Below are positions 7,224 through 41,511 of a stretch of 64,000 nt of DNA, in pieces; position 1 is the stretch's first letter, and the number at the start of each line of letters is the position of its first letter. The stretch comes from Candidatus Saccharimonadota bacterium (GTDB lineage Bacteria > Patescibacteriota > Saccharimonadia > Saccharimonadales > VXPC01), in NCBI GenBank assembly GCA_026707815.1, contig JAPOWB010000003.1:131380-195379 (forward strand). The letters run 5' to 3'. The notes below the pieces were generated by a model, which worked only from the letters and a program-made list of their open reading frames with translations, made no database searches and was not told the DNA's origin. The translations under genes and the position numbers were made by a program.

Positions 7224-7472
7224 ATGAGTGAGCTCTATAAAAACTTTAACGCCGAACATCAGCCATCTGATAGCTTCATGGATAAATTTCCCAATCTTGC
7301 TGATGAGGAAATTTTAGATATGGCTAATTGGTATGGCATGTTGAGTGAACATGTTAAAGCTTTGATTTGCCAATCCGAAGTCATTAATCGTCGGCAGAAC
7401 CAAGCCACTGTCAGCCTTCAGCAAGCATTTGAAATGCGCAACCAACAAGCTTTGAGTTATTTTGAAGATTAA
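7224..7472 (+). CDS. Hypothetical protein (82 aa)
   Basis: ORF with its own extended -10 promoter; no family recognised. Confidence 0.4.
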   Translation: MSELYKNFNAEHQPSDSFMDKFPNLADEEILDMANWYGMLSEHVKALICQSEVINRRQNQATVSLQQAFEMRNQQALSYFED

Positions 7473-7482
7473 CCCCCCCCCC
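7473..7482 (+). repeat. C10 homopolymer tract
   Basis: Ten consecutive C directly after the TAA stop of CDS 7224-7472, in an AT-rich genome. Confidence 0.95.
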
Positions 7483-7575: not shown

Positions 7576-7731
7576 ATGAAGTATTTATCTATTTTATTCA
7601 CTATTTTATTAATTTGGATTTCTATCTTAATTATTGTCGCCGTCAGACCAGAAGAAACTGGTTTTGAATTATTCCTAACTGTTATTGTTTGCACTTTGGC
7701 TTTATTCTTAATCGGCTTCGTTAAAAAATAA
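7576..7731 (+). CDS. Small two-TM membrane protein (51 aa, below ORF-track cutoff)
   Basis: Own translation: MKYLSILFTILLIWISILIIVAVRPEETGFELFLTVIVCTLALFLIGFVKK*. Same hairpin-TM design as CDS 11878-12066. Confidence 0.4.
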   Translation: MKYLSILFTILLIWISILIIVAVRPEETGFELFLTVIVCTLALFLIGFVKK

Positions 7732-7757: not shown

Positions 7758-9305
7758 ATGAGTCGAGCAGTTATCTTAAAGAAACAAAGACTAGTTGCCA
7801 TTTTTAAGCTCTTGGTTCAATCTTATTATTTAAATCGTCGAGGCAAAAAAGATGCTATGTATAATTTGCTGGGCGATGAATTGCTGAAACTCGGTGGTGT
7901 CTACATTAAGTTTCTCCAAGGGGTTATTTTGCAAAGCTGGTCAATGCAACGTTGGCGAAGCGATAATAAGTTGGATATTTTTGAAGATGTCAGAAGTCCG
8001 AAATTAAATGCTCCCAAAATTTTAAAAAATAATTTAGGAGATAAGTTTGAACGATTGACTGATTTAAGTTCTAAGCCAATAGCTATTGGCTCATTCGGTC
8101 ATGTCTACTTAGCTAAATTAAATAAGAAAGATACCGTCATAGTTAAACTGCTATCTTCAGAGATTCGGAAAACTCTGAAGTTTGATTTGAGACTTTTGAA
8201 ATTCTTCTATCATTGGCATCTCAAAGCCATTAAATTCAACAAAGGCTTAAATGTTCGAGCAATCTTCAATGACTTTAAAAAACAAACTCTCCATGAAATT
8301 GATTACATTGCTGAAGCTGAATTTGCTGATGAGCAATATCACATTTATAAAGATCATCCCAAATTAGTTATCCCAAAGACTTATTTGGAATTATGTACTG
8401 ATGAAGTCATCATTCAAGATTATGTGAAAGGTCTGTCTGTGACTAAATTGTTGAAACTCAAGGAAAAAAAATCTGATTTAGATTTGAAAGATTATGTTAA
8501 AAAAGAGTTTCAAAGCGACTTAGTTAAACAACTTCAGATTTTAGCTTTCGAAATTCTTTGGGCAACATTTCATCAACCATCTGTGATGGGTGATCCCCAT
8601 CCTGGTAATGTTATTATCATGGATAACAATCAGATCGGCTTGATTGATTTCGGTATCAAAGCTCAAAGTTCTAAATACCCAGTTGCTTACTTAAAATTTA
8701 TTAAGGCATATAATCAATTGGATGAGAAAAATTTTAATTTAGAGGAATTCTTTGTTGCTAGTTTACAGTTTTTCGGACGAGATTTATATCTTGCCTTAGA
8801 TAAGCTTGGCAAACTGGTTCCCTCCAATGAAAAAACAGCTACTAATTTTAATCAAGAATTAGCTCGGATTATGCAAAGAGCTTTTGAGGCTGAATTTTCC
8901 AAAAAAGATATTAGCCATTTAATTAGTAGCCCCAAAGCTTTGGTAATTTTTGATCGTCTAGCTAATAAGAATAATCGTTTTGGTTTCAAGCTGACTGTCA
9001 GCGACAGTGAGATGCTCAGAACTTTGGTGACTTTAACTGGACTGATTGATCTGCTGAATTTATATTCAGAAGTCATGACACCAACTTATTTGAAGGTCAT
9101 CCGAAAAGTTGAAACAGAATATCCTGATTTAAAATCCTTAAACGAAACTGAGATTAGTTATAGCCAAGCTTTTAATATTGCCTTTGTCTGGCTAGAAAGA
9201 GTGGCTTCCCATGACCCAAGCTTATTCCAGGGCATGATGCAAAAACTCAGACAGCGTTCAAAAATTTTACAAAAAGAAATTAAGCAAGAAATTGCTGATA
9301 GTTAA
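7758..9305 (+). CDS. ABC1/UbiB-family atypical protein kinase
   Basis: GGVYIKFLQ..., IAIGSFGHVYLAKL, EVIIQDYVKG, GDPHPGNVII and IGLIDFG follow the ABC1/AarF kinase-like motif order. Confidence 0.75.
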   Translation: MSRAVILKKQRLVAIFKLLVQSYYLNRRGKKDAMYNLLGDELLKLGGVYIKFLQGVILQSWSMQRWRSDNKLDIFEDVRSPKLNAPKILKNNLGDKFERLTDLSSKPIAIGSFGHVYLAKLNKKDTVIVKLLSSEIRKTLKFDLRLLKFFYHWHLKAIKFNKGLNVRAIFNDFKKQTLHEIDYIAEAEFADEQYHIYKDHPKLVIPKTYLELCTDEVIIQDYVKGLSVTKLLKLKEKKSDLDLKDYVKKEFQSDLVKQLQILAFEILWATFHQPSVMGDPHPGNVIIMDNNQIGLIDFGIKAQSSKYPVAYLKFIKAYNQLDEKNFNLEEFFVASLQFFGRDLYLALDKLGKLVPSNEKTATNFNQELARIMQRAFEAEFSKKDISHLISSPKALVIFDRLANKNNRFGFKLTVSDSEMLRTLVTLTGLIDLLNLYSEVMTPTYLKVIRKVETEYPDLKSLNETEISYSQAFNIAFVWLERVASHDPSLFQGMMQKLRQRSKILQKEIKQEIADS

Positions 9306-9404: not shown

Positions 9405-11705
9405 TTAGATCTTATTCTTCTTTCTGCGATTAGAAGAAACTGCAATAATTCCGATAATCACGGCAATAATAATGACCGTCATAATCACCCCAGTCATATC
9501 ATTATCATCATCTGTGGGCTTGGCTTCCTTATCCTCATTATTAGTAGATGAAGCGACTGCATCAGTTTCATCGATAATAATATTAGTGCCTTGATAGGAA
9601 ATTTTACCAGTAGCAGGATCAGTCACTCGAACACAAATACCATTCACAATCTCGCTAGCATTAATTACTCCTGAAGAATCTGCTTGGATTGGAGTAGCAT
9701 TTTCAAAAACTCCCTGATTACAGGGGATATCAGCATTGTTATGGGGGATGTATTCAAAATTTGACAGATCACTGCCATCAGATGAATTACCAAAAACTAA
9801 AAATTGATTTTCTTCAGCGTCGTAACTAACAGTTACCGTTGTTCCTAAATCAGAAGCTTGAGAATTAGTTGGCTGAATTGCAGTCTCACTTGGATTTGAA
9901 TCAACGCTCTCAACTTGAGAATTAGGGACGACTACTTCAGTAGTTGTTTCTTCTTCCTCATTGCTGGGAGCATCATCAATGTCGGCTGGTTGAGTTACCT
10001 CTCTATCATCACCATCAGTTGGGGTAGTCACTGGTGGAGTAGTTGGGGTCACATAGTTTAATTGAGCAATCTGAGATCTTTCATTGCCTCTATTGTCAGT
10101 GGCTTTGATGCAAATCCATCGACCATGTTCGGCTGATGTAGCAGTAATACTCACTTCAGCATCATTGTTTTTGTTATTGTAATTCTCTTTAAGAGAACAC
10201 TGATCATTTTGACTTGAAGCAAACTTCCAATCAACTGATTTAACTCCAGCAGTATCTTCAGCAGTAATCATCAGAGTGCTGCCTGAGACTTTCAAAGTCA
10301 TAGTTGGACTGGCACTATCTTCTACATATTCAATCCAAGCAGATGAAATCATGTTTTCACTATCACCTTCGTTACCTGATCCTTGCCAGCTAGTTATTGC
10401 TTCGCCCCTGTGATTGATACGCTCTACCAGTGTACCCACAAAACAGTATCTACTTCCGATATTTGCTTTGGATAAATCTATTTTCTGATTGTCAATAACT
10501 TTGACGCTTGTAATATCATTGGGATTTTTCTCCATGAACTCATAACAAGTATCATTGCCGGGATCCATTTCTGTCATATAAGCTCTCCATACTACTGGTG
10601 GTGATTCGAAAGCATCAAAGATGTCCAGTTTGCCGGGAATAGTTTTAACTATTAAAGTTTTATCATCTTCATAGGAAATACTTGTCTCGGGAGTTGGGTT
10701 TAAGATTACAGCATCATTAATCTCTATCGCTTCTGTCAAGATATTTTGTACACCTGCAGAAGAGTCATCCAAATCATTACTTAAATCTATTGAATTACCA
10801 AATTTATCTCTAATCATAAAATTGCTACCACCAATATAGTTCATACTAGCTGACCTCTCTAGCGAGTGGAAAAAGTTCGATATATCAAAGCGATATGTTG
10901 AAAAAGTAAGAGTTTGACCACGAGCTAATACTTGGTTGGCTGACAGCGTTGTTGGAAAACTTAAGTCCACATCAAGTTCAAGCACATAAGCCAAATTCTT
11001 TCTTAGAGTCCCTGGTTCAACCTTATTTTCTATATGAATACTAGGCATAAAACTGCGATCACTGTATCTCGCCGTTGTGCGGACTACAATTTCAACTTCT
11101 TCATCAAATTCAATTGAAAAACTAAATCTATCCCCAATATCGGTATAATCATATTTACCACTGATATCAACTTTCTGTTTGTTTTTCAATTTGGGTGGAG
11201 TTAAATCTATTCTAGTATCACTAACTAAGTAAACTGGATCGTAAAGAAGAGCAATCTCGGAAGTATCTCTATTATCCCTATAGACTGCTTCAAAACAAGC
11301 ATATTTATCACTAAAATCTAGAGTTGACTGATTGTCTGTTGTATCAGCATCAATAGTCATCGGTTGAGTAGTTCTTCTGCTAACATTGACTCCAGAGGCA
11401 ATATCAGTAGCATCTGATGCTATGGCATCTTCATCACAATCATCCCTCTCATCAACGGCAGCCACTTTAACGGTGGCTACCCTATGTTCGAGAGGAGATC
11501 TAATTTTAGCCACCAAGATGTTGCCAGTGCCTCTCGAAATATCTTGGATGGAACCACTAGGATGAGCATCGTCGTCGTGAGCTTTGACTAAATTGAGGGG
11601 GGGGGTAATCCCAGAAACGATTAATAGACCAACCAACCCTAGCAGAATAGATGACAAGACCGCCCGCTTTTTATTTACTAAATTTAATATATTTTTTTCA
11701 CGCAT
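9405..11705 (-). CDS. Surface protein with N-terminal signal/anchor, two-cysteine W...C...C modules, acidic Thr/Pro stalk and C-terminal TM anchor
   Basis: N-terminal hydrophobic LSSILLGLVGLLIVSG and C-terminal VIMTVIIIAVIIGIIAVSSNRRKKNKI. Modules such as VDWKFASSQNDQCSL...HGRWICIKATDNRGNE and FEYIPHNNADIPCNQ...NGICVRVTDPATG resemble the repeats of CDS 27709-31815. Confidence 0.8.
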   Translation of the reverse strand: MREKNILNLVNKKRAVLSSILLGLVGLLIVSGITPPLNLVKAHDDDAHPSGSIQDISRGTGNILVAKIRSPLEHRVATVKVAAVDERDDCDEDAIASDATDIASGVNVSRRTTQPMTIDADTTDNQSTLDFSDKYACFEAVYRDNRDTSEIALLYDPVYLVSDTRIDLTPPKLKNKQKVDISGKYDYTDIGDRFSFSIEFDEEVEIVVRTTARYSDRSFMPSIHIENKVEPGTLRKNLAYVLELDVDLSFPTTLSANQVLARGQTLTFSTYRFDISNFFHSLERSASMNYIGGSNFMIRDKFGNSIDLSNDLDDSSAGVQNILTEAIEINDAVILNPTPETSISYEDDKTLIVKTIPGKLDIFDAFESPPVVWRAYMTEMDPGNDTCYEFMEKNPNDITSVKVIDNQKIDLSKANIGSRYCFVGTLVERINHRGEAITSWQGSGNEGDSENMISSAWIEYVEDSASPTMTLKVSGSTLMITAEDTAGVKSVDWKFASSQNDQCSLKENYNNKNNDAEVSITATSAEHGRWICIKATDNRGNERSQIAQLNYVTPTTPPVTTPTDGDDREVTQPADIDDAPSNEEEETTTEVVVPNSQVESVDSNPSETAIQPTNSQASDLGTTVTVSYDAEENQFLVFGNSSDGSDLSNFEYIPHNNADIPCNQGVFENATPIQADSSGVINASEIVNGICVRVTDPATGKISYQGTNIIIDETDAVASSTNNEDKEAKPTDDDNDMTGVIMTVIIIAVIIGIIAVSSNRRKKNKI
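11597..11605 (-). repeat. C9 (coding-strand) homopolymer inside the 5' end of CDS 9405-11705
   Basis: att acc ccc ccc ctc encodes ITPPL, just after the signal/anchor segment. Confidence 0.95.
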
Positions 11706-11743
11706 ACTGAAAACATATTAGCACAATCTTGCAAGATTCTAAT

Positions 11744-11753
11744 CCCCCCCCCC
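11744..11753 (-). repeat. G10 (gene-strand) homopolymer 39 nt upstream of the start of CDS 9405-11705
   Basis: Ten consecutive C on the plus strand. On the gene strand the tract abuts a weak -35 (ATTAGA), then 17 nt, TAATAT, 9 nt and ATG. Confidence 0.9.
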
Positions 11754-11877
11754 TTCTCTCTTAATAGACTATACATTTTGTATTAATTTTATTAATTAAT
11801 TTGCTTACAAAGGATTGTTTAATTTGGCTGGGATTGTTATATAATTGGATTATATAAATTGAGAATGTAAGCATTCT

Positions 11878-12066
11878 ATGTTGAGAGATTTTTTACTATT
11901 TATAAAATATCCATACACTGCTGGGATTATTGCCATTATTTGGTTGGGGTCAGCTTGTTTTTTGGCTTTATCCGATAATATTGATTTAATTCAAGTTGTC
12001 ATCGTTGATCTTTTAACAACTGTTATTATTGCTATTTTTGGCTTCAAAGATAAAAAAGAAATCTAA
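11878..12066 (+). CDS. Small two-TM membrane protein (62 aa)
   Basis: Two hydrophobic helices (AGIIAIIWLGSACFLAL and LLTTVIIAIFGF); no known family. Confidence 0.4.
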   Translation: MLRDFLLFIKYPYTAGIIAIIWLGSACFLALSDNIDLIQVVIVDLLTTVIIAIFGFKDKKEI

Positions 12067-21675: not shown

Positions 21676-21861
21676 GTGGTTAGCTTGATGTCTAATTACA
21701 AGCAATACCTTACCCAAGCCGAAGCAGATGCCTTTTTAAAATCAGTTGATGTCAATAGAGATAAACACATATCCCTTGCAGTAAAGAGTAAGCAAGGTTT
21801 AGATGCTATTACGAGTATTGCTTTAGGGGTTACTGGGTTATGTGGGGGGGGGCAGTATTGA
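21676..21861 (+). CDS. Hypothetical protein (61 aa) ending in a G9 tract
   Basis: ORF only. The last codons tgt ggg ggg ggg cag tat tga contain the homopolymer. Confidence 0.3.
   Translation: MVSLMSNYKQYLTQAEADAFLKSVDVNRDKHISLAVKSKQGLDAITSIALGVTGLCGGGQY
21844..21852 (+). repeat. G9 homopolymer tract 5 nt upstream of the -35 of the cassette promoter
   Basis: tgtGGGGGGGGGcagtaTTGATT. Confidence 0.95.
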
Positions 21862-21897: not shown

Positions 21898-22455
21898 ATG
21901 ATAAATAAAAATACTATTAAATTTCCTACAGATAATATAGAAAGACAATATAATGCTGATGATAATTTAGAAAGACATACCTATATTCGTATGATGGTAA
22001 AAAATAAATTAAACAACACCCTTAAATTTTCTAGAAATAATATAGAAAGACACTATGATGCTCTTGGTAATTTAAAAGGATATACCAGCTATGAATATAA
22101 TGATGATGATAGGTTAAAGTCGTATACCGAGGTTAAATGTGATGCTAATGGTAATCCGATTAAACAAGAACGATATGATGCTGATGGTCATTTAAAAGGA
22201 TATACCAACTATGAATATAATCGTGATGGTAGGTTAAAGTCGTATACCAAGTTTGAATGTGATGGTAATCTGATTACAAAAGAATACTATTATGCTAATG
22301 GTGAGAGGTTGAACAAAGAATACAAAGAATACTATGATACTGATGGTAGGTTAAAGTTCTATTTTAGGTATGAATATAATGGTGATGGTGATTTGATTGC
22401 AAAAGACAGCTATACTGGTGATGGTGATTTAGTAAATACCACGTATTACCACTAA
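21898..22455 (+). CDS. YD-like repeat protein without signal peptide
   Basis: Repeats YDALGNLKGYTSYEYNDDDRLKSY, CDANGNPIKQERYDADGHLKGY... and a C-terminus DGDLVNTTYYH. Confidence 0.75.
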   Translation: MINKNTIKFPTDNIERQYNADDNLERHTYIRMMVKNKLNNTLKFSRNNIERHYDALGNLKGYTSYEYNDDDRLKSYTEVKCDANGNPIKQERYDADGHLKGYTNYEYNRDGRLKSYTKFECDGNLITKEYYYANGERLNKEYKEYYDTDGRLKFYFRYEYNGDGDLIAKDSYTGDGDLVNTTYYH

Positions 22456-22493: not shown

Positions 22494-22525
22494 CCCCCCC
22501 CCTTAATTAGGGGGTTTTGTTTTTT
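22494..22525 (+). terminator. Intrinsic terminator-like hairpin whose 5' arm is a C9 tract
   Basis: CCCCCCCCC-TTAATTA-GGGGG followed by TTTTGTTTTTT. Lies between the two cassette genes. Confidence 0.65.
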
Positions 22526-22556: not shown

Positions 22557-23531
22557 ATGAATAAAAAGCTAATCATTATTCTTGCCAGCATCATTGTCTT
22601 ACTGGTTGGGATAGGTATAACCATCTATGCTTTAACTAGTGATGATGAAGTAAAAATAGTAAAATCTGATGATACTACAAACAATACGCCAGATACAGAT
22701 AAAGAAGCTCAAACTAGTAAGCCAGTTGATACTACTAAAGAAGTAAAGCCAGTTGATAAAGCTCCAGCTGATGCCCCCAAAGATAAAACAGAATGTCCTA
22801 AAGATACAGATTACAGAAAACATACTTGTGATACTGGTGGCAATGTGATTAAATCAGAAATCTATGATGATGGTAAGTTAGGGGGGTATGTTCAGTTTGA
22901 ATACAATGCTAATGGTAAGTTGATTAAACAAGATGTTTATGATACTGATGGTAATTTGGCTTGGACTGAACACTATGATGTAGATGGTAATTTGATTGAA
23001 ACTATCTCACATAAAGATAAAACAGAATGCCCTAAAGATACAGATATCAAAAAATATATTTGTGATGCTGATGGTAATGTGATTAAAAGAGAACACTATG
23101 ATGTTGATGGTAAGTTAAAGTGGTATTACAAATATGAATATGATGCTGACGGCAATGTGATTAAAAGAGAATGGCATAATTATAATGCTGATGGTAAGTT
23201 AAGGGGGTATTACAAATATGAATATGATGCTGATGGTAATGAGATTAAATATGAACACTATGATACTGATGGTAATTTAAGGGGATATAATAAGTCTGAA
23301 TATGATGCTGATGGTAATAGAGTTAAATTTGAATACTATGGTGCTGATGGTAATCTTATTCAGCAAGACCACTATGATGCTGATGGTAATGTGATTAAAA
23401 GAGAAAACTATGACGCTGATGGTAATTCAAAGGGATATGAGAAGTATGAATATGATGCTGATGGTAATCAGATTAAATCAGAATGGTTTGATGGTGATGG
23501 TAAGTTGATAAATACTAGGTATTACCACTAA
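22557..23531 (+). CDS. Membrane-anchored YD-like repeat protein with internal module duplication
   Basis: The leader MNKKLIIILASIIVLLVGIGITIYALTS matches CDS 1825-2319. The KDKTECPKDTD..C.. module occurs twice (nt ~22781 and ~23013). Long run of YEYDADGNxIKxE / YDxDGKLxGYYK repeats, ending DGDGKLINTRYYH. Confidence 0.8.
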   Translation: MNKKLIIILASIIVLLVGIGITIYALTSDDEVKIVKSDDTTNNTPDTDKEAQTSKPVDTTKEVKPVDKAPADAPKDKTECPKDTDYRKHTCDTGGNVIKSEIYDDGKLGGYVQFEYNANGKLIKQDVYDTDGNLAWTEHYDVDGNLIETISHKDKTECPKDTDIKKYICDADGNVIKREHYDVDGKLKWYYKYEYDADGNVIKREWHNYNADGKLRGYYKYEYDADGNEIKYEHYDTDGNLRGYNKSEYDADGNRVKFEYYGADGNLIQQDHYDADGNVIKRENYDADGNSKGYEKYEYDADGNQIKSEWFDGDGKLINTRYYH

Positions 23532-27708: not shown

Positions 27709-30700
27709 TTACACATAGTCTAAATCAGAAGAAGAGTCATGATCATCTAATCCACCATTGGAAGAATCATTTCTATGATGCTTCTTGCTCAAAGCTAGAA
27801 AGATTAAAGTCACAATCAAAAGAGCAACTAAAGCCCCTCCAATAATCAAGATTAGATCTTGGTTATCTGTCTCTTCCTCATCAGCTGGAGTTGACTCAGT
27901 TGTTTCAGCCTCATCGGTTGGTTTTTCTTCAGATGACGGTTGAGTTGACTCAGGCTGGGCAGCCTTATCCAAACTGACCGTTAAAGATTCATAAGTGTAA
28001 TTCCCCTTGGCATCAGCGACTCTGAAACAGTAAACTGCTCCGCTTGAGGCTTGATTGAGATTCACTTCGTTGCCTGATTTGACTAGACTGCTATTTCTGA
28101 AAGCTCTATAATCGCAAGCTTGATTATCTTTCAAAACAACATATTGCCAATTTTTAACATCTTCATCAGAAGTTGCCATGATGGTTTCAGCAGTTTGCTT
28201 GACCGTCACTTGAGGAGCTTTGGTATCAATGCCAGTCACAAAAATCTTAGCATGACCAACAATACCATTGTCAGCTACAACCTTGAAACAATACCAATAA
28301 CCATTACTACTCTCGTTTAGAATCAGCTTGTGGGCTGATTTGGAAGCTTCTGAGAATTCTAGCTGATTATCTGGGCTACAATCTATGTCAGTTCTTGATC
28401 TAAGCCACTGCCAAGTGTTGTTGTCAACATTATCAGCTGAGGCGGTCAAAGTAGTATTTCTTAGAGTCAGGCTAATAACTGGAGCTTCAAGATTAATCTC
28501 ATTTAAAACTATCCCCTTATAACCATAGTTACCATGTTTATCAGCTACTCGGAAACAATAATAAATGAAATCGCTATCATGGGTGGTCACATCAAAAGAT
28601 ATTTCAGATGATTCAACTTGGTTAAGCTTATCAAAAGTTAAATCTTCTCCTTGGCAATCTAGCTGCGTCTTGCTGTAAAAGTAACCCCAAGTTGTCACAT
28701 CTAAATCATCATCTGTACTCTCAATGGTTAGTAAAATATTATTCTGAGTAATCTTAATCGTTGGAGCTTGACGATCAATTCTGATTTTACTGTAAGTAGT
28801 TAGCCCTCGCTGGTTTGAAACCTTGAAACATAGCCAGTGATAAGCTGAGCCAAGATTCTTTACTTGTAAGTTAAGCTCTAGCGAATTATTGTGGTTTTTA
28901 ACAAACTGCAGGTTGCTATTGGGGCCACAATATGGCTCAGTCAGAGATAAAGCCCAAGCCCAAGTTGAGTAATTGACATTAGCTGAAGTTGAGCGAGCAA
29001 TAATCCTGCCCGCTGGAGTTTCGAGAGTGATGACTGGTGAACTTTGATCATCAACTTTACCAACGCTATAAAGAGCATAAATATAATTACCAGCATAATC
29101 AGCAACCTTGAAACATAACCAGTGATTATTATCTACTTCTCTTAATAACAATTGCCTATTAGCCGGCAAGCGAGTAATTAAAGAATTAGAATAAGTCTGA
29201 CAATCAACGCTTTGACTAAATTTAGCATACTGCCAAGTATCGTGATCAACATCTGTGGACGAAGAATTAATGGTTAAGATATTAGCTGTATCGTTGAACT
29301 TAAAGCCAATCACAGGAGTCGATAAATCATAGCGGTATTTGGCGTACCCATAATTGCGAGCATTACCAGCTTGGCTTGAAGTATCAGCTACTCGGAAGCA
29401 ATAGTAAGCTCCGTGTTGTGCATCAGAAATATTGCTAATAACAATCTTCTGAGTTGAAGATGTCAACAAATTAGTATTTACATCTGTATAAGTGACTTTA
29501 GAACAATCACCGGGATCAGAGCTGAAGGTTGCCCAAGCCCAACTGTAGCCATCAACATCATCGGCGGTTGTACTAACCTCGATGACTCGAGCTTGAGATT
29601 TTTGGATAACTTTCAGAGCCGGTGGATTATCAATAGTAGTAATTTGGTTGCTTTTAGCATAGCCGTAGTTACCGGCTTTGTCAGCCACTCGGAAACAGTA
29701 ATATCTGTCACTATCGCTTTCACTGAGAGTTACTGTATTGTTCTGGCTATTAGCCCGATTAAAGCTTAAATCTTTATCACAGTCAAAATCATCATTGACT
29801 TGACTGCGAGCATACTGCCAAGAATTGACATTAATGTCTGTTGCCTTAGTAGTAGCTGTTAATGTTGAGCCTTTTTGCCCAACTTCAACTACAGGGGCTG
29901 TAGCATCAAAGGTTTTGATACGAATTTTACCGTAACCGAAGAAATCAAGATTGTTTAAAACTCGGAAGCAAAACCAATAATTAATATCATCTTCAACTAA
30001 ATTCAAAGTCTGATCGTCAAAGCTTCGCCAAGTCAAATTGGGAGCAACAGTTCTACAATTAGATGGCTGGTTGGTTCGAGACACTCGAGCATAACGCCAA
30101 GAATCTTTATCAATAGCCACATTATTGCTGACTTGAACTGTCAAGACAGATCCTTTTTGAGTCATACTAATAGTTGGTGTGGCAGTATTCAAAGAAGTAA
30201 CATGATAAGCATCGCTATAACCAACATTGCCGTATTGATCCTCAACTTTAAAGCAAAAGTAATCATTGACATCATTGCTATCTAGTCTAATTTGAGAGCC
30301 TCGATTAACAGTTAAATCTTCAAAAGTATCCTCATCGCATTCCAAATCATCTTCATCTTCAACCCATCGCCAAGTGCTACTTTGAGGTCGATCTTTGCTA
30401 GAGGAGGTAGCCCACAATAAATTATTGGTTTGACGCAATTTAATTGTCGGAGCAACAACGTCAATTTTGATAGATTTATAAGCATAATTACCAACTAAAC
30501 TATCAGCCACTCTCAAGCATAGCCATTGATCCTCAACGTCTTCGTCAGCTCCAGTATCAGTCAAATCAATAATAGTATAGCTTCGTTTAGTCGTGGAACG
30601 ATTTTCAAGCGTCAGACCAACAGAAGACCATCCAGTCAATTGAGAATGACAATCATCATCTGTCTCAATCACATATTGCCAAGAATTTCCATCAACTTCA

Positions 30701-31815
30701 ACCGCATCATAAGCATTGGCTTTGACAGTTAAACGGGATTGTTGAAGACCACTTAAAGTGGGCGGATTGTTGATGGTGGTAGCACTGACATGGGAATAAG
30801 CGTAATGACCAACATTATCAGCTACTCGGAAACAATAAGTCCGACCTGCAGTTGACTGAGTTAGGGTAATAACTGCTCTATCTCGACTAATAACCGCACC
30901 TTTGAAAGTATCCAAGTCTTTGAAACTAGTGTATCGACTATTACATTTAGAAGCTGAAATAGTCGCATACTGCCAAGAATCTAAATTAATATTGGCATTA
31001 CTATCAGGTTGACTATCATTATTGTCATCTTGGAAGACTGAAACTGTTAATATGGCATTATTTTGGTTAACGCTTAATTGTGGTGAGCGAGTATCAACTT
31101 GAAAACCAGCTGTATTATAGCCCACATTACCCTGATCATCAGTCAGCTTAAAGCAGTAGTATTTACCGTGATTACCATCACTGAGAGGCATAATCAGAGT
31201 TTTGGTTGTAGCGACATTTTGCTCAGTAAAAGATCCTGACTCAGCACTACAATCACTAACAGCTGTATCAGAGATAAGAACTTCCCAAGTGGCGATTTGA
31301 CTAATATCATCAGCTGTTGCCACTAAGTTATTGGCTTGTTGCTTGACGGCGACTACTGGAGCTTGTTGATCAATAGTGAACAAAGCGTAGTACTCTTTAG
31401 TGCTAGCATCGTTATTCGGGCGTTGATACAAAACCTTCAAACAATAATATGAATGTCCAACCCCAAGAGTAGCAGTGAAAGTCGCTTGATTAGCAACATT
31501 ATCCCAATCAGCTAATCTTGTCGTTCCAAAGCCTTGAGCAGAACAAGACTGATTGTTGACCACTTGGCTATAGTGGATATGTGTCTCAGCCTGGGAATTG
31601 GTAAAATATTTGACTTCGTAACCTTCAGGGGCTTCTACAGTAGCAGTCACCTCTGCATTTGTTCTAGAAAATGTAACCGTCGGAGCAACCGCTTGGACTA
31701 ATAACCACCCCAAATAAATAGATGAAATAAGCACAATAGAAGCTAGAAAAACTAAATAGCTAACCCATATAGTTTTTCGAGTTCGTGGCTGAGCAAGATT
31801 ATTCACTTGATTCAA
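27709..31815 (-). CDS. Giant surface protein: N-terminal signal/anchor, 13 tandem ~95-aa two-cysteine repeats, acidic stalk, C-terminal TM anchor and acidic cytoplasmic tail
   Basis: Repeat consensus is APxIxVxQxxNxLTATxxDxDVDxxSWQYAxxxxxxDCxxxxxF...(25-35 aa)...YYCFRVADKAGNYGY. C-terminal TM is LILIIGGALVALLIVTLIFLAL. Likely true start is GTG 31806, 9 nt after AAGGAG (31816-31821), rather than the tracked TTG 31815. Confidence 0.85.
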   Translation of the reverse strand: MNQVNNLAQPRTRKTIWVSYLVFLASIVLISSIYLGWLLVQAVAPTVTFSRTNAEVTATVEAPEGYEVKYFTNSQAETHIHYSQVVNNQSCSAQGFGTTRLADWDNVANQATFTATLGVGHSYYCLKVLYQRPNNDASTKEYYALFTIDQQAPVVAVKQQANNLVATADDISQIATWEVLISDTAVSDCSAESGSFTEQNVATTKTLIMPLSDGNHGKYYCFKLTDDQGNVGYNTAGFQVDTRSPQLSVNQNNAILTVSVFQDDNNDSQPDSNANINLDSWQYATISASKCNSRYTSFKDLDTFKGAVISRDRAVITLTQSTAGRTYCFRVADNVGHYAYSHVSATTINNPPTLSGLQQSRLTVKANAYDAVEVDGNSWQYVIETDDDCHSQLTGWSSVGLTLENRSTTKRSYTIIDLTDTGADEDVEDQWLCLRVADSLVGNYAYKSIKIDVVAPTIKLRQTNNLLWATSSSKDRPQSSTWRWVEDEDDLECDEDTFEDLTVNRGSQIRLDSNDVNDYFCFKVEDQYGNVGYSDAYHVTSLNTATPTISMTQKGSVLTVQVSNNVAIDKDSWRYARVSRTNQPSNCRTVAPNLTWRSFDDQTLNLVEDDINYWFCFRVLNNLDFFGYGKIRIKTFDATAPVVEVGQKGSTLTATTKATDINVNSWQYARSQVNDDFDCDKDLSFNRANSQNNTVTLSESDSDRYYCFRVADKAGNYGYAKSNQITTIDNPPALKVIQKSQARVIEVSTTADDVDGYSWAWATFSSDPGDCSKVTYTDVNTNLLTSSTQKIVISNISDAQHGAYYCFRVADTSSQAGNARNYGYAKYRYDLSTPVIGFKFNDTANILTINSSSTDVDHDTWQYAKFSQSVDCQTYSNSLITRLPANRQLLLREVDNNHWLCFKVADYAGNYIYALYSVGKVDDQSSPVITLETPAGRIIARSTSANVNYSTWAWALSLTEPYCGPNSNLQFVKNHNNSLELNLQVKNLGSAYHWLCFKVSNQRGLTTYSKIRIDRQAPTIKITQNNILLTIESTDDDLDVTTWGYFYSKTQLDCQGEDLTFDKLNQVESSEISFDVTTHDSDFIYYCFRVADKHGNYGYKGIVLNEINLEAPVISLTLRNTTLTASADNVDNNTWQWLRSRTDIDCSPDNQLEFSEASKSAHKLILNESSNGYWYCFKVVADNGIVGHAKIFVTGIDTKAPQVTVKQTAETIMATSDEDVKNWQYVVLKDNQACDYRAFRNSSLVKSGNEVNLNQASSGAVYCFRVADAKGNYTYESLTVSLDKAAQPESTQPSSEEKPTDEAETTESTPADEEETDNQDLILIIGGALVALLIVTLIFLALSKKHHRNDSSNGGLDDHDSSSDLDYV

Positions 31816-40977: not shown

Positions 40978-41511
40978 ATGTCTAAATTTGAATCATTTAC
41001 CCCCCCCCGCCACCGCGATCTTATAGTTGATATCACTGAAAGATTGGATCAGCCAAATAATTGTATCAATGGTAATTTTGAGATTAATAAAAATTATCAG
41101 CCAGAAACAACTAAGATTTCTGAAGCCACCAAAACTCAACCAGAAATTGTAGAGATTATCCCTTCCCCGACTATCGTTGATTGCAATCATTTGCCAAAAA
41201 TGAAAGTCAGGCTGAAAAACAGAAAAATTGCTGTTGTCAGTAAAAAACCAACCCCCATTAAAAAAGACTGGCATCAAGATGCTGCTTGTCGGGGTTTAAT
41301 TGATTTATTCTATAAGGAATATCCAACTAAAGAAGATACAACTAAAGTGAAAGACTTGTGCTGTCGTTGCCCAGTCGTTTCTTCCTGTTTAGAAACTGGG
41401 TTGACTGCTAATCGGGGAATCCCAGAAAAATTTGGAATTTGGGCTGGTTTCAACTCAAGAGAACTCTCGAAAATTCATCGAGCCCGGCAGGCAGATAGAA
41501 AATTCAGCTAA
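40978..41511 (+). CDS. WhiB-like (Wbl) Fe-S transcription factor with ~95-aa N-terminal extension
   Basis: WHQDAACRG...(x)...LCCRCPVVSSCLETGL...FGIWAGFNSRE gives four Cys in C-Xn-C-X2-C-X5-C spacing plus the G[IV]WGG-like turn. Confidence 0.75.
   Translation: MSKFESFTPPRHRDLIVDITERLDQPNNCINGNFEINKNYQPETTKISEATKTQPEIVEIIPSPTIVDCNHLPKMKVRLKNRKIAVVSKKPTPIKKDWHQDAACRGLIDLFYKEYPTKEDTTKVKDLCCRCPVVSSCLETGLTANRGIPEKFGIWAGFNSRELSKIHRARQADRKFS
41000..41008 (+). repeat. C9 homopolymer in codons 8-11 of the WhiB-like gene
   Basis: ttt acc ccc ccc cgc (FTPPR). Confidence 0.95.

Follow-up and report, generated by a model that had tools for sequence, protein, structure and literature searches.

In a low-GC member of Candidatus Saccharibacteria (TM7/Patescibacteria), a gene that encodes a large predicted surface protein appears to be a simple-sequence-repeat (SSR) contingency locus, a reading to which we assign a probability of about 0.78. 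The gene lies in a 64,000 nucleotide (nt) stretch of contig JAPOWB010000003.1 (assembly GCA_026707815.1, positions 131,380 to 195,379 of the forward strand). This whole stretch was analysed and is called "the window" below, and positions are those of the window unless another locus is named. The gene (hereafter the target gene) has a run of nine Cs near the 5' end of its coding sequence (CDS) and a run of ten Gs a short distance upstream of its start codon. Because the C tract occurs naturally with eight, nine and ten Cs in nearly identical genomes, and because the reading frames of the out-of-frame ("OFF") alleles are otherwise intact, comparison of these sequences indicates that the gene is very probably a genuine phase-variable gene whose translational switch is well supported. 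An effect of the upstream G tract on transcription of the target gene is plausible, and we give it roughly even odds. The locus shows several of the properties by which homopolymer contingency loci are recognized: a G/C tract of at least 8 nt, loss of the product with a change of one nt and its restoration with a change of three, natural length polymorphism, OFF alleles that have not decayed, and a bias of the tracts toward 5' ends and promoters.

The coding-sequence C tract and its natural alleles

The C9 tract is followed by 729 codons of the target CDS. When its length was varied in silico, tracts of seven, eight, ten and eleven Cs all led to a stop codon after 38 to 49 amino acids (38 for C8 and 49 for C10), and tracts of six, nine and twelve Cs all left the full-length protein in frame. 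An earlier note on this DNA, made from the sequence alone, had described a 9-nt tract that encodes T-P-P-L early in the CDS, had stated that a length change would frameshift the approximately 730 codons beyond it, and had suggested that changes of one nt in either direction be checked for early stops; the position of the tract (Table 1) and the in silico frames bear out all of this. In an alignment of the protein family the T-P-P encoded by the tract is a three-residue (9-nt) insertion that is absent from relatives P0002, P0003, P0004 and P0011, and it falls in the c-region of the signal peptide directly before a conserved small-x-small motif (VKA/HDDD, where the slash marks the putative cleavage site). 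The alignment suggests that this is a tolerated site for such a tract, in that proline is accepted in the c-region and the residues in question would be removed from the mature protein. Since the C tract encodes part of a putatively cleaved signal peptide, in-frame length variants would not be expected to change the mature protein, a placement shared with other contingency genes.

Natural alleles were found through assemblies located by exact-protein look-ups of neighbouring genes and cluster members in ENA, Logan and NCBI. Nine assemblies, including the window, belong to one species (99-100% nt identity) and fall into three strains that are about 99% identical to one another; eight of them cover the CDS tract (Table 2). 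The tract is C9 in six of these eight, the window included, and it is C8 in one and C10 in one. The C8 allele (L083) and a C9 allele of the same strain (L084) differ by one C in the CDS tract and at no other position in 9,585 nt. In both OFF alleles 702 codons downstream remain open and no further disabling mutation is present, and the two are shifted in opposite directions (-1 in L083 and +1 in L099) on different strain backgrounds. The earlier note had also named orthologs without both tracts as evidence that would count against a switch; the close orthologs (about 99% nt identity) retain both, and tracts are absent only from paralogs and distant homologs that are 30-42% identical. Its proposal of a switch at the CDS tract is borne out at the comparative level by C8, C9 and C10 alleles that occur naturally in near-identical genomes.

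The deposited proteins of the two OFF alleles are 702 amino acids (aa) long and begin at an internal GTG codon (MCY3804346.1, positions 8364-10472 of L083, and MCY4010467.1, positions 5001-7109 of L099). These calls mask the frameshift and strip the signal peptide from the deposited protein.

Table 1. Features of the target locus and other tracts of the window (positions in the window)
Feature	Position	Strand	Remarks
Target CDS	9405-11705	-	766-aa protein, predicted to be secreted and C-terminally membrane-anchored; open reading frame (ORF) and translation
Signal-peptide coding region	11577-11705	-	Residues 1-43, MREKN...LNLVKA/HDDD; alignment and hydropathy
C9 tract, putative translational ON/OFF switch	11597-11605	-	CDS nt 101-109, codons 34-37 (T34-P-P-L37)
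C-terminal transmembrane (TM) anchor	9435-9497	-	Residues ~737-757, then basic tail NRRKKNKI; hydropathy, AlphaFold2 (AF2) helix and family conservation
Mosaic cassette, ~330 nt	10019-10347	-	Ig-like domain, residues ~453-560; near-identical to paralog P0002/P0025
Dimorphic patch, 98 nt	10119-10216	-	aa 497-508, SSQNDQCSLKEN vs LHKDDQCSVRED
G10 tract, candidate transcriptional modulator	11744-11753	-	Last G at -39 from ATG
P1, proximal extended -10 TGcTAATAT	11715-11723	-	9 nt upstream of ATG; conserved in all strains
P2, alternative distal promoter-like site TTAAGA-17-TAGAAT	11736-11764	-	Consensus scan, 9/12; G tract inside spacer
C10 tract	7473-7482	+	Directly after stop of 82-aa ORF 7224-7472
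G9 tract	21844-21852	+	5 nt upstream of TTGATT-17-TGATATAAT-11-ATG of YD/RHS-repeat gene 21898-22455
C9 tract	22494-22502	+	Between 21898-22455 and second YD/RHS/DUF2963 gene 22557-23531
C9 tract in WhiB-family gene	41000-41008	+	CDS 40978-41511, codons 8-11 (T-P-P-R)

Table 2. Tract alleles of the target gene in nine assemblies of one species
Assembly	Strain	Upstream tract	10-nt insert	CDS tract	State
Window	1	G10	none	C9	ON
L001	1	G10	none	C9	ON
L089	1	G10	none	C9	ON
L085	1	G10	none	contig ends before tract	
L084	2	G9	AAAGATAAAA	C9	ON
L086	2	G9	AAAGATAAAA	C9	ON
L087	2	G9	AAAGATAAAA	C9	ON
L083 (GCA_026706615.1)	2	G9	AAAGATAAAA	C8	OFF
L099 (GCA_026708245.1)	3	T+G10	AAAGATAAAA	C10	OFF

G/C tracts in the window and in related genomes

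The C9 and upstream G10 tracts of the target gene are two of six such tracts in the window. The G+C content of the window is 36%, and its G/C run lengths are bimodal, with seven runs of 6, one of 7, none of 8 and six of 9 or 10. A 9-mer G/C pattern matches eight times (in these six tracts) where 0.04 matches are expected, and none of 100 dinucleotide-preserving shuffles reached eight. All six tracts are intergenic or lie in the first 110 nt of a CDS, and none falls in CDS beyond its first 120 nt, which makes up 73% of the window (P ~ 4 × 10^-4). No other classes of SSR were found in the window.

Runs of at least 8 Gs or Cs are absent from 79 of 80 other Saccharibacteria loci (1.22 Mb in all), and the seven of these 80 loci whose G+C content is below 42% (113 kb) have no G/C run even of 7; the loci of the target species and two low-GC homolog loci each have a long run. 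Because the other Saccharibacteria loci, those of low GC included, are without long runs, the tract habit appears from these comparisons to be specific to the target lineage. The single exception (L003, 58% GC) is from the closest other Saccharibacteria metagenome-assembled genome (MAG) and has a G10 at 8577-8586 and a G9 at 8645-8653, both within the last 85 nt of its contig, a position that makes a poly-G read artefact likelier than real tracts.

The upstream G tract and candidate promoters

On the gene strand the region upstream of the target CDS reads G10 (11753-11744), ATTAGA (11743-11738), 17 nt, TAATAT (11720-11715), 9 nt and the ATG (11705), and the placement of the tract 39 nt upstream of the ATG and the hexamer spacing given in the earlier note are correct. 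Its further proposal that the tract abuts a -35 element fared less well: ATTAGA (or TTAGAA, at a spacing of 16 nt) has only three of the six consensus bases, the ATTAGA/TAATAT pair is not among the promoters listed by a consensus scan, and in strains 2 and 3 the 10-nt insertion puts ATTAGA/TTAGAA 27 nt from TAATAT. The length of the upstream tract differs between the strains (Table 2).

Two other candidate promoters, P1 and P2, are given in Table 1. In the homologous loci L002 and L098 the corresponding region is TTGACA-16-TATTAT-7-ATG, with TATTAT at the position equivalent to the -10 of P1, and P1 is a plausible leaderless-type proximal promoter that may be the main promoter of the gene. The spacer of P2 contains the G tract and is 17 nt long in strain 1, 16 nt in strain 2 and 18 nt in strain 3; the extended -10 of P1 sits 21 nt downstream of P2. 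Many other gene starts in the window (for example, at 2436, 21898, 50573, 51216 and 54985) have a TGnTATAAT-like extended -10 only 5 to 11 nt from the ATG. The genes with such a proximal -10 have no Shine-Dalgarno sequence, and AAGGAG is found at only a few genes (RNase Y, DnaK, a ThyX-like gene and others), a pattern that suggests widespread leaderless mRNAs in this genome. The palindrome AATCTTGCAAGATT between ATTAGA and TAATAT was considered as a possible operator and rejected; it occurs only once in the window, with 14 near-matches against 11.4 expected, and is not intact in strains 2 and 3. No Rfam elements were found near the target locus.

The gene product and its mosaic cassette

The target protein is identical to NCBI entry MCY4088672.1 (P0016; locus tag OXF49_00885), a "hypothetical protein" of a Candidatus Saccharibacteria MAG, and the RNase Y gene immediately upstream matches only Candidatus Saccharibacteria/Saccharimonadales MAGs, with top identities of 77% and 69%. 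Profile searches of Pfam, NCBIfam and PDB gave no family match, a scan of species-representative genomes with the target protein gave no homologs, and none were found in JGI metagenomes with either a variable-gap DNA pattern or the family alignment. A search of 1.84 billion representative proteins gave only P0002, P0003 and P0004 as full-length relatives, although a domain of about 100 aa is shared with other large proteins. These three have the architecture of the target: an apparent signal peptide, in which basic N-terminal residues precede a hydrophobic core and a small-x-small motif with HD/DD after it, then Thr/Pro/Asp/Glu-rich linkers and a C-terminal TM helix with a basic tail. The target has only two hydrophobic segments, at residues ~13-33 and ~738-760 (hydropathy; the AF2 helix spans 737-762), and we infer signal-peptide cleavage at VKA/HDDD from the sequence. 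A sortase-anchored Gram-positive adhesin was considered and rejected, as there is no LPXTG-like motif before the C-terminal hydrophobic segment of the target, whose anchor consists simply of a TM helix and a basic tail.

The AF2 model of the target is all-beta with a mean pLDDT (predicted local distance difference test score) of 55, a value of about 80 being reached in the domain at residues 460-550; the whole-protein model is weak and was used only to describe the protein as all-beta and made of Ig/FnIII-like strings. Foldseek matched it to proteins made of FnIII/Ig domain strings and to the Aureispira grappling-hook protein. The target is thus predicted to be a type-I surface protein with a signal peptide, several Ig/FnIII-like domains, an acidic Thr/Pro stalk and a membrane anchor. 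The term "adhesin-like" used in the earlier note fits this secreted, membrane-anchored, beta-sandwich architecture, and as a label for the target "adhesin-like surface protein" is reasonable but unproven.

One Ig-like domain of the protein is encoded by a mosaic cassette that is near-identical to the paralog; outside the cassette the target and paralog P0002 are only 36-42% identical. This paralog shares a contig with the target gene on contigs of 208 kb and 243 kb in two assemblies. Within the cassette is a dimorphic patch, of which the paralog's version (SSQNDQCSLKEN) is present in the window and strain 3 and the other version (LHKDDQCSVRED) in L001, L089, L090 and strain 2. The window and L001 differ at 15 positions in 14.3 kb, all of them inside this 98-nt patch, and this is the sole difference seen within strain 1. 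Segmental gene conversion between the surface-protein paralogs likely made the patch, to judge from its sequence, and collapse of an assembler bubble may be an alternative source of the dimorphism. The short forms of the paralog in NCBI (775/776 aa) were considered as a possible second frameshift switch and rejected: in the one case checked (L100, strain 3) the 5' DNA is that of the 807-aa allele and the difference is only one of start-codon choice.

Alternative explanations

Several points weigh against the reading of this locus as a phase-variable gene with two tracts. The tract lengths are consensus values of short-read metagenome assemblies, in which homopolymers of 8-10 nt are error-prone, and L083 and L084 may come from the same sample, in which case their difference could reflect the assembler and not the population. 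The upstream tract is constant within a strain (four of four assemblies) and so does not itself display rapid switching, and the other four tracts of the window show no length variation in the few strain-1 assemblies. P1 and P2 are both candidates by sequence alone, which does not separate them, and the structural model of the protein is of low confidence (pLDDT 55), its function being putative. If the first of these points were taken to its limit, the length differences would be sequencing or assembly artefacts, the tracts would be fixed at G10/C9 (or G9/C9) and the gene would be constitutive. In spite of the fact that all the data are such consensus sequences, that only two of the eight covering assemblies deviate from C9 and that L083 and L084 could stem from the same reads, we consider this improbable: the C8 and C10 calls come from separate MAG depositions and different strains, one being a C short and the other a C long, and artefact leaves unexplained the presence of six tracts of 9-10 nt where 0.04 pattern matches are expected, the location of all six at 5' ends or between genes, and the recurrence of identical tracts in up to four independent assemblies. 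A one-way decay, in which the frameshifted alleles are pseudogenes that are being lost in some strains and no reversible switch exists, is quite improbable. Reduced symbiont genomes do accumulate homopolymer frameshifts, and the tract is out of frame in two of the three NCBI MAGs, but 702 codons are open and otherwise undamaged in both OFF alleles, the C8 and C9 alleles differ by one base in 9.6 kb, and the tract occupies a dispensable signal-peptide position that is typical of selected switches. Because -1 and +1 alleles are found on different backgrounds and without other damage, a reversible switch accounts for them better than decay does.

The role of the upstream tract can be doubted separately. 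It could be a neutral hitch-hiker or act on another gene, such as the divergent ORF at 11878-12066 (+) that encodes a 62-aa membrane protein, with the CDS tract alone governing the target gene; this is a serious contender, if on balance an unlikely one. The proposed -35 is a weak one that the insertion in strains 2 and 3 moves by 10 nt, extended -10 promoters need no -35 element, and the G tract lies in a divergent intergenic region. On the other hand, only 5 nt separate the G9 at 21844-21852 from a clear leaderless-type promoter downstream of it (TTGATT-17-TGATATAAT), a G10 in the same species is directly upstream of TATATAAT of a GmrSD gene, and the TTAAGA...TAGAAT spacer is held within 16-18 nt in all three strains. 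Promoter-proximal placement therefore recurs, since the G9 at 21844 and the GmrSD G10 share it, and these sister cases make a promoter role for the tracts credible. As for the local hypervariability of the target gene, a diversity-generating retroelement (DGR) in place of repeats and recombination seems to us extremely improbable. DGRs are common in candidate phyla radiation (CPR) bacteria, and the confinement of 15 of 15 window-L001 differences to the 98-nt patch would suit one, but there is no template repeat (a second copy of the variable region) in the 64-kb window, a scan of a subset of the ORFs gave no reverse transcriptase, the substitutions show no adenine specificity, and the patch of the window equals the corresponding stretch of the genome's own paralog, which speaks for gene conversion.

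Other tract-bearing loci

The WhiB-family gene encodes a 177-aa protein (Pfam Whib, 1.5e-11) in which a change of one nt in either direction in its tract leads to early stops; the tract is C9 in the only other assembly that covers it (L092). A phase-variable WhiB regulator could switch a whole regulon, in the manner of a phasevarion. The G9 tract upstream of the first YD/RHS-repeat gene also lies three codons short of the stop that ends a small upstream ORF, and the C9 tract between the two YD/RHS genes is inside a hairpin (CCCCC-TTAATTA-GGGGG) with a T-run after it. The gene pair at 1825-2873 (promoter at 2436), which is paralogous, has the same promoter sequences without tracts. The tracts at 21844, 22494 and 41000 showed no length variation among the strain-1 assemblies, which were the only ones compared.

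The C10 tract at 7473-7482 is 94 nt upstream of a 51-aa ORF with two TM segments and is followed by a perfect palindrome (TTTTCAGCTGAAAA), and in strains 2 and 3 this tract is interrupted (CCCCTCCCCC). The two-TM ORFs at 7576-7731 and 11878-12066, each downstream of a (+)-strand C10, were considered as paralogs that share a tract and promoter and were rejected, as they have no similarity in protein or upstream DNA.

Beyond the window, the GmrSD type IV restriction gene of the target species has its G10 immediately upstream of TATATAAT and 19 nt before the start (positions 3630-3639 of L002, and in L100), and the tract is identical in two strains. The two related low-GC homolog loci have an A9G8 56 nt before an OLD-like nuclease gene (L098, 7087-7103) and an intergenic G10 (L097, 5488-5497), and defence genes may belong to the tract-controlled set. 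The window also encodes a 1368-aa protein (27709-31815, - strand) that has no family and no tract and whose C-terminus is weakly EssA-like (an acidic stalk and TM anchor); the same weak match is found at the C-terminus of paralog P0002, and the 1368-aa protein is probably another anchored surface protein.

Proposed mechanism and significance

We propose that the locus would work as follows: Slipped-strand mispairing during replication would change the length of the poly-C tract in the signal-peptide coding part of the gene. With nine Cs (or six or twelve) the target protein would be made and exported, and with eight or ten translation would end after 38-49 residues and the cell would be without it; the sequence and the natural alleles both show this effect on the reading frame. 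The poly-G tract would most likely tune transcription, either by altering the 16-18-nt spacer of the sigma-70-type TTAAGA-N-TAGAAT promoter or by changing how the upstream DNA is placed with respect to P1, the proximal leaderless-type promoter with the extended -10, like the rheostat of Helicobacter pylori sabA (below). The population would then display the surface protein heterogeneously, which in an episymbiont plausibly serves attachment, host range, or escape from recognition by phage or host.

Like other CPR bacteria, Saccharibacteria spend their lives attached to bacterial hosts and have tiny genomes with few regulators, and to our knowledge little is understood of how they vary their surface. 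Full-text literature searches found no report of SSR switching in Saccharibacteria, Patescibacteria or CPR; a TM7x paper raises phase variation only by analogy, and the subject of a Gracilibacteria paper is a 9-mer repeat array. The mechanism itself is ordinary and known from pathogens, and in this phylum we found no description of it. The tract-bearing genes so far are those for the dual-tract Ig-like surface protein, two YD/RHS-repeat proteins, a WhiB-family factor and a GmrSD type IV restriction enzyme. It is an evenly balanced question, in our estimation, whether this low-GC lineage has evolved a genome-wide poly-G/C "phasome"; as far as these searches go, no SSR contingency system would have been described in Patescibacteria/CPR before it. 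If it has, such a phasome together with gene conversion between paralogs would allow an ultrasmall, regulator-poor episymbiont to hedge attachment, host range and phage defence. The set of putatively hypermutable G/C tracts, with natural ON and OFF alleles in public MAGs, indicates that these bacteria hedge their bets in the manner of Campylobacter, Helicobacter and Neisseria. It also singles out a specific, otherwise unannotated protein family that is likely to act where the symbiont meets its host or its phages. A practical consequence is that, since the OFF alleles were deposited as 702-aa proteins that annotation pipelines had started at an internal GTG, phase-variable genes in MAGs are silently mis-annotated.

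Comparison with known systems

In Neisseria porA and opc and in the vlp genes of Mycoplasma hyorhinis, a homopolymer reportedly lies inside the spacer between the -35 and -10 elements. If P2 is used, the target gene would resemble these, with the tract setting a spacer of 16, 17 or 18 nt and hence promoter strength; in contrast to theirs, P2 is a candidate promoter, with an extended -10 21 nt downstream of it. The opa genes of Neisseria are said to have CTCTT repeats in the region that encodes the signal peptide. The target gene is similar in that its switch repeat is in the signal-peptide region, where in-frame variants would leave the mature protein unaltered, but it has a homopolymer rather than a pentanucleotide repeat and encodes a single-membrane anchored protein rather than an outer-membrane protein.

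Campylobacter has G/C tracts of similar length in a low-GC genome (PMC8355987). The target species is like C. jejuni in its low G+C content and in a discrete set of G/C tracts (about 8-11 nt), found within genes as well as between them, that are concentrated in surface-structure genes and have bimodal run lengths (PMC8355987, PMC8437040). It differs in phylum and lifestyle, and its tract set includes a WhiB-family regulator and, outside the window, a GmrSD restriction gene.

The closest known system, by analogy, appears to be sabA of H. pylori, in which a T-tract next to the -35 acts as a rheostat and a CT repeat in the 5' CDS turns the gene ON and OFF (PMC4081817); dual repeat control of one adhesin gene is thus already known. 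Both loci have two independent repeats on one surface or adhesin gene, one promoter-proximal and the other a frameshifting repeat in the 5' CDS, both have tract lengths that vary between strains, and both are found in small genomes with few regulators. They differ in that the repeats of sabA are poly-T and a CT dinucleotide and those of the target gene are both G/C homopolymers; in that the promoter of the target gene, whose tract is a candidate modulator of transcription, would be of the extended -10, leaderless type; in that the organism is a Patescibacteria episymbiont and not a proteobacterial pathogen; and in that the product is an unrelated, C-terminally anchored Ig-like string and not an outer-membrane protein.

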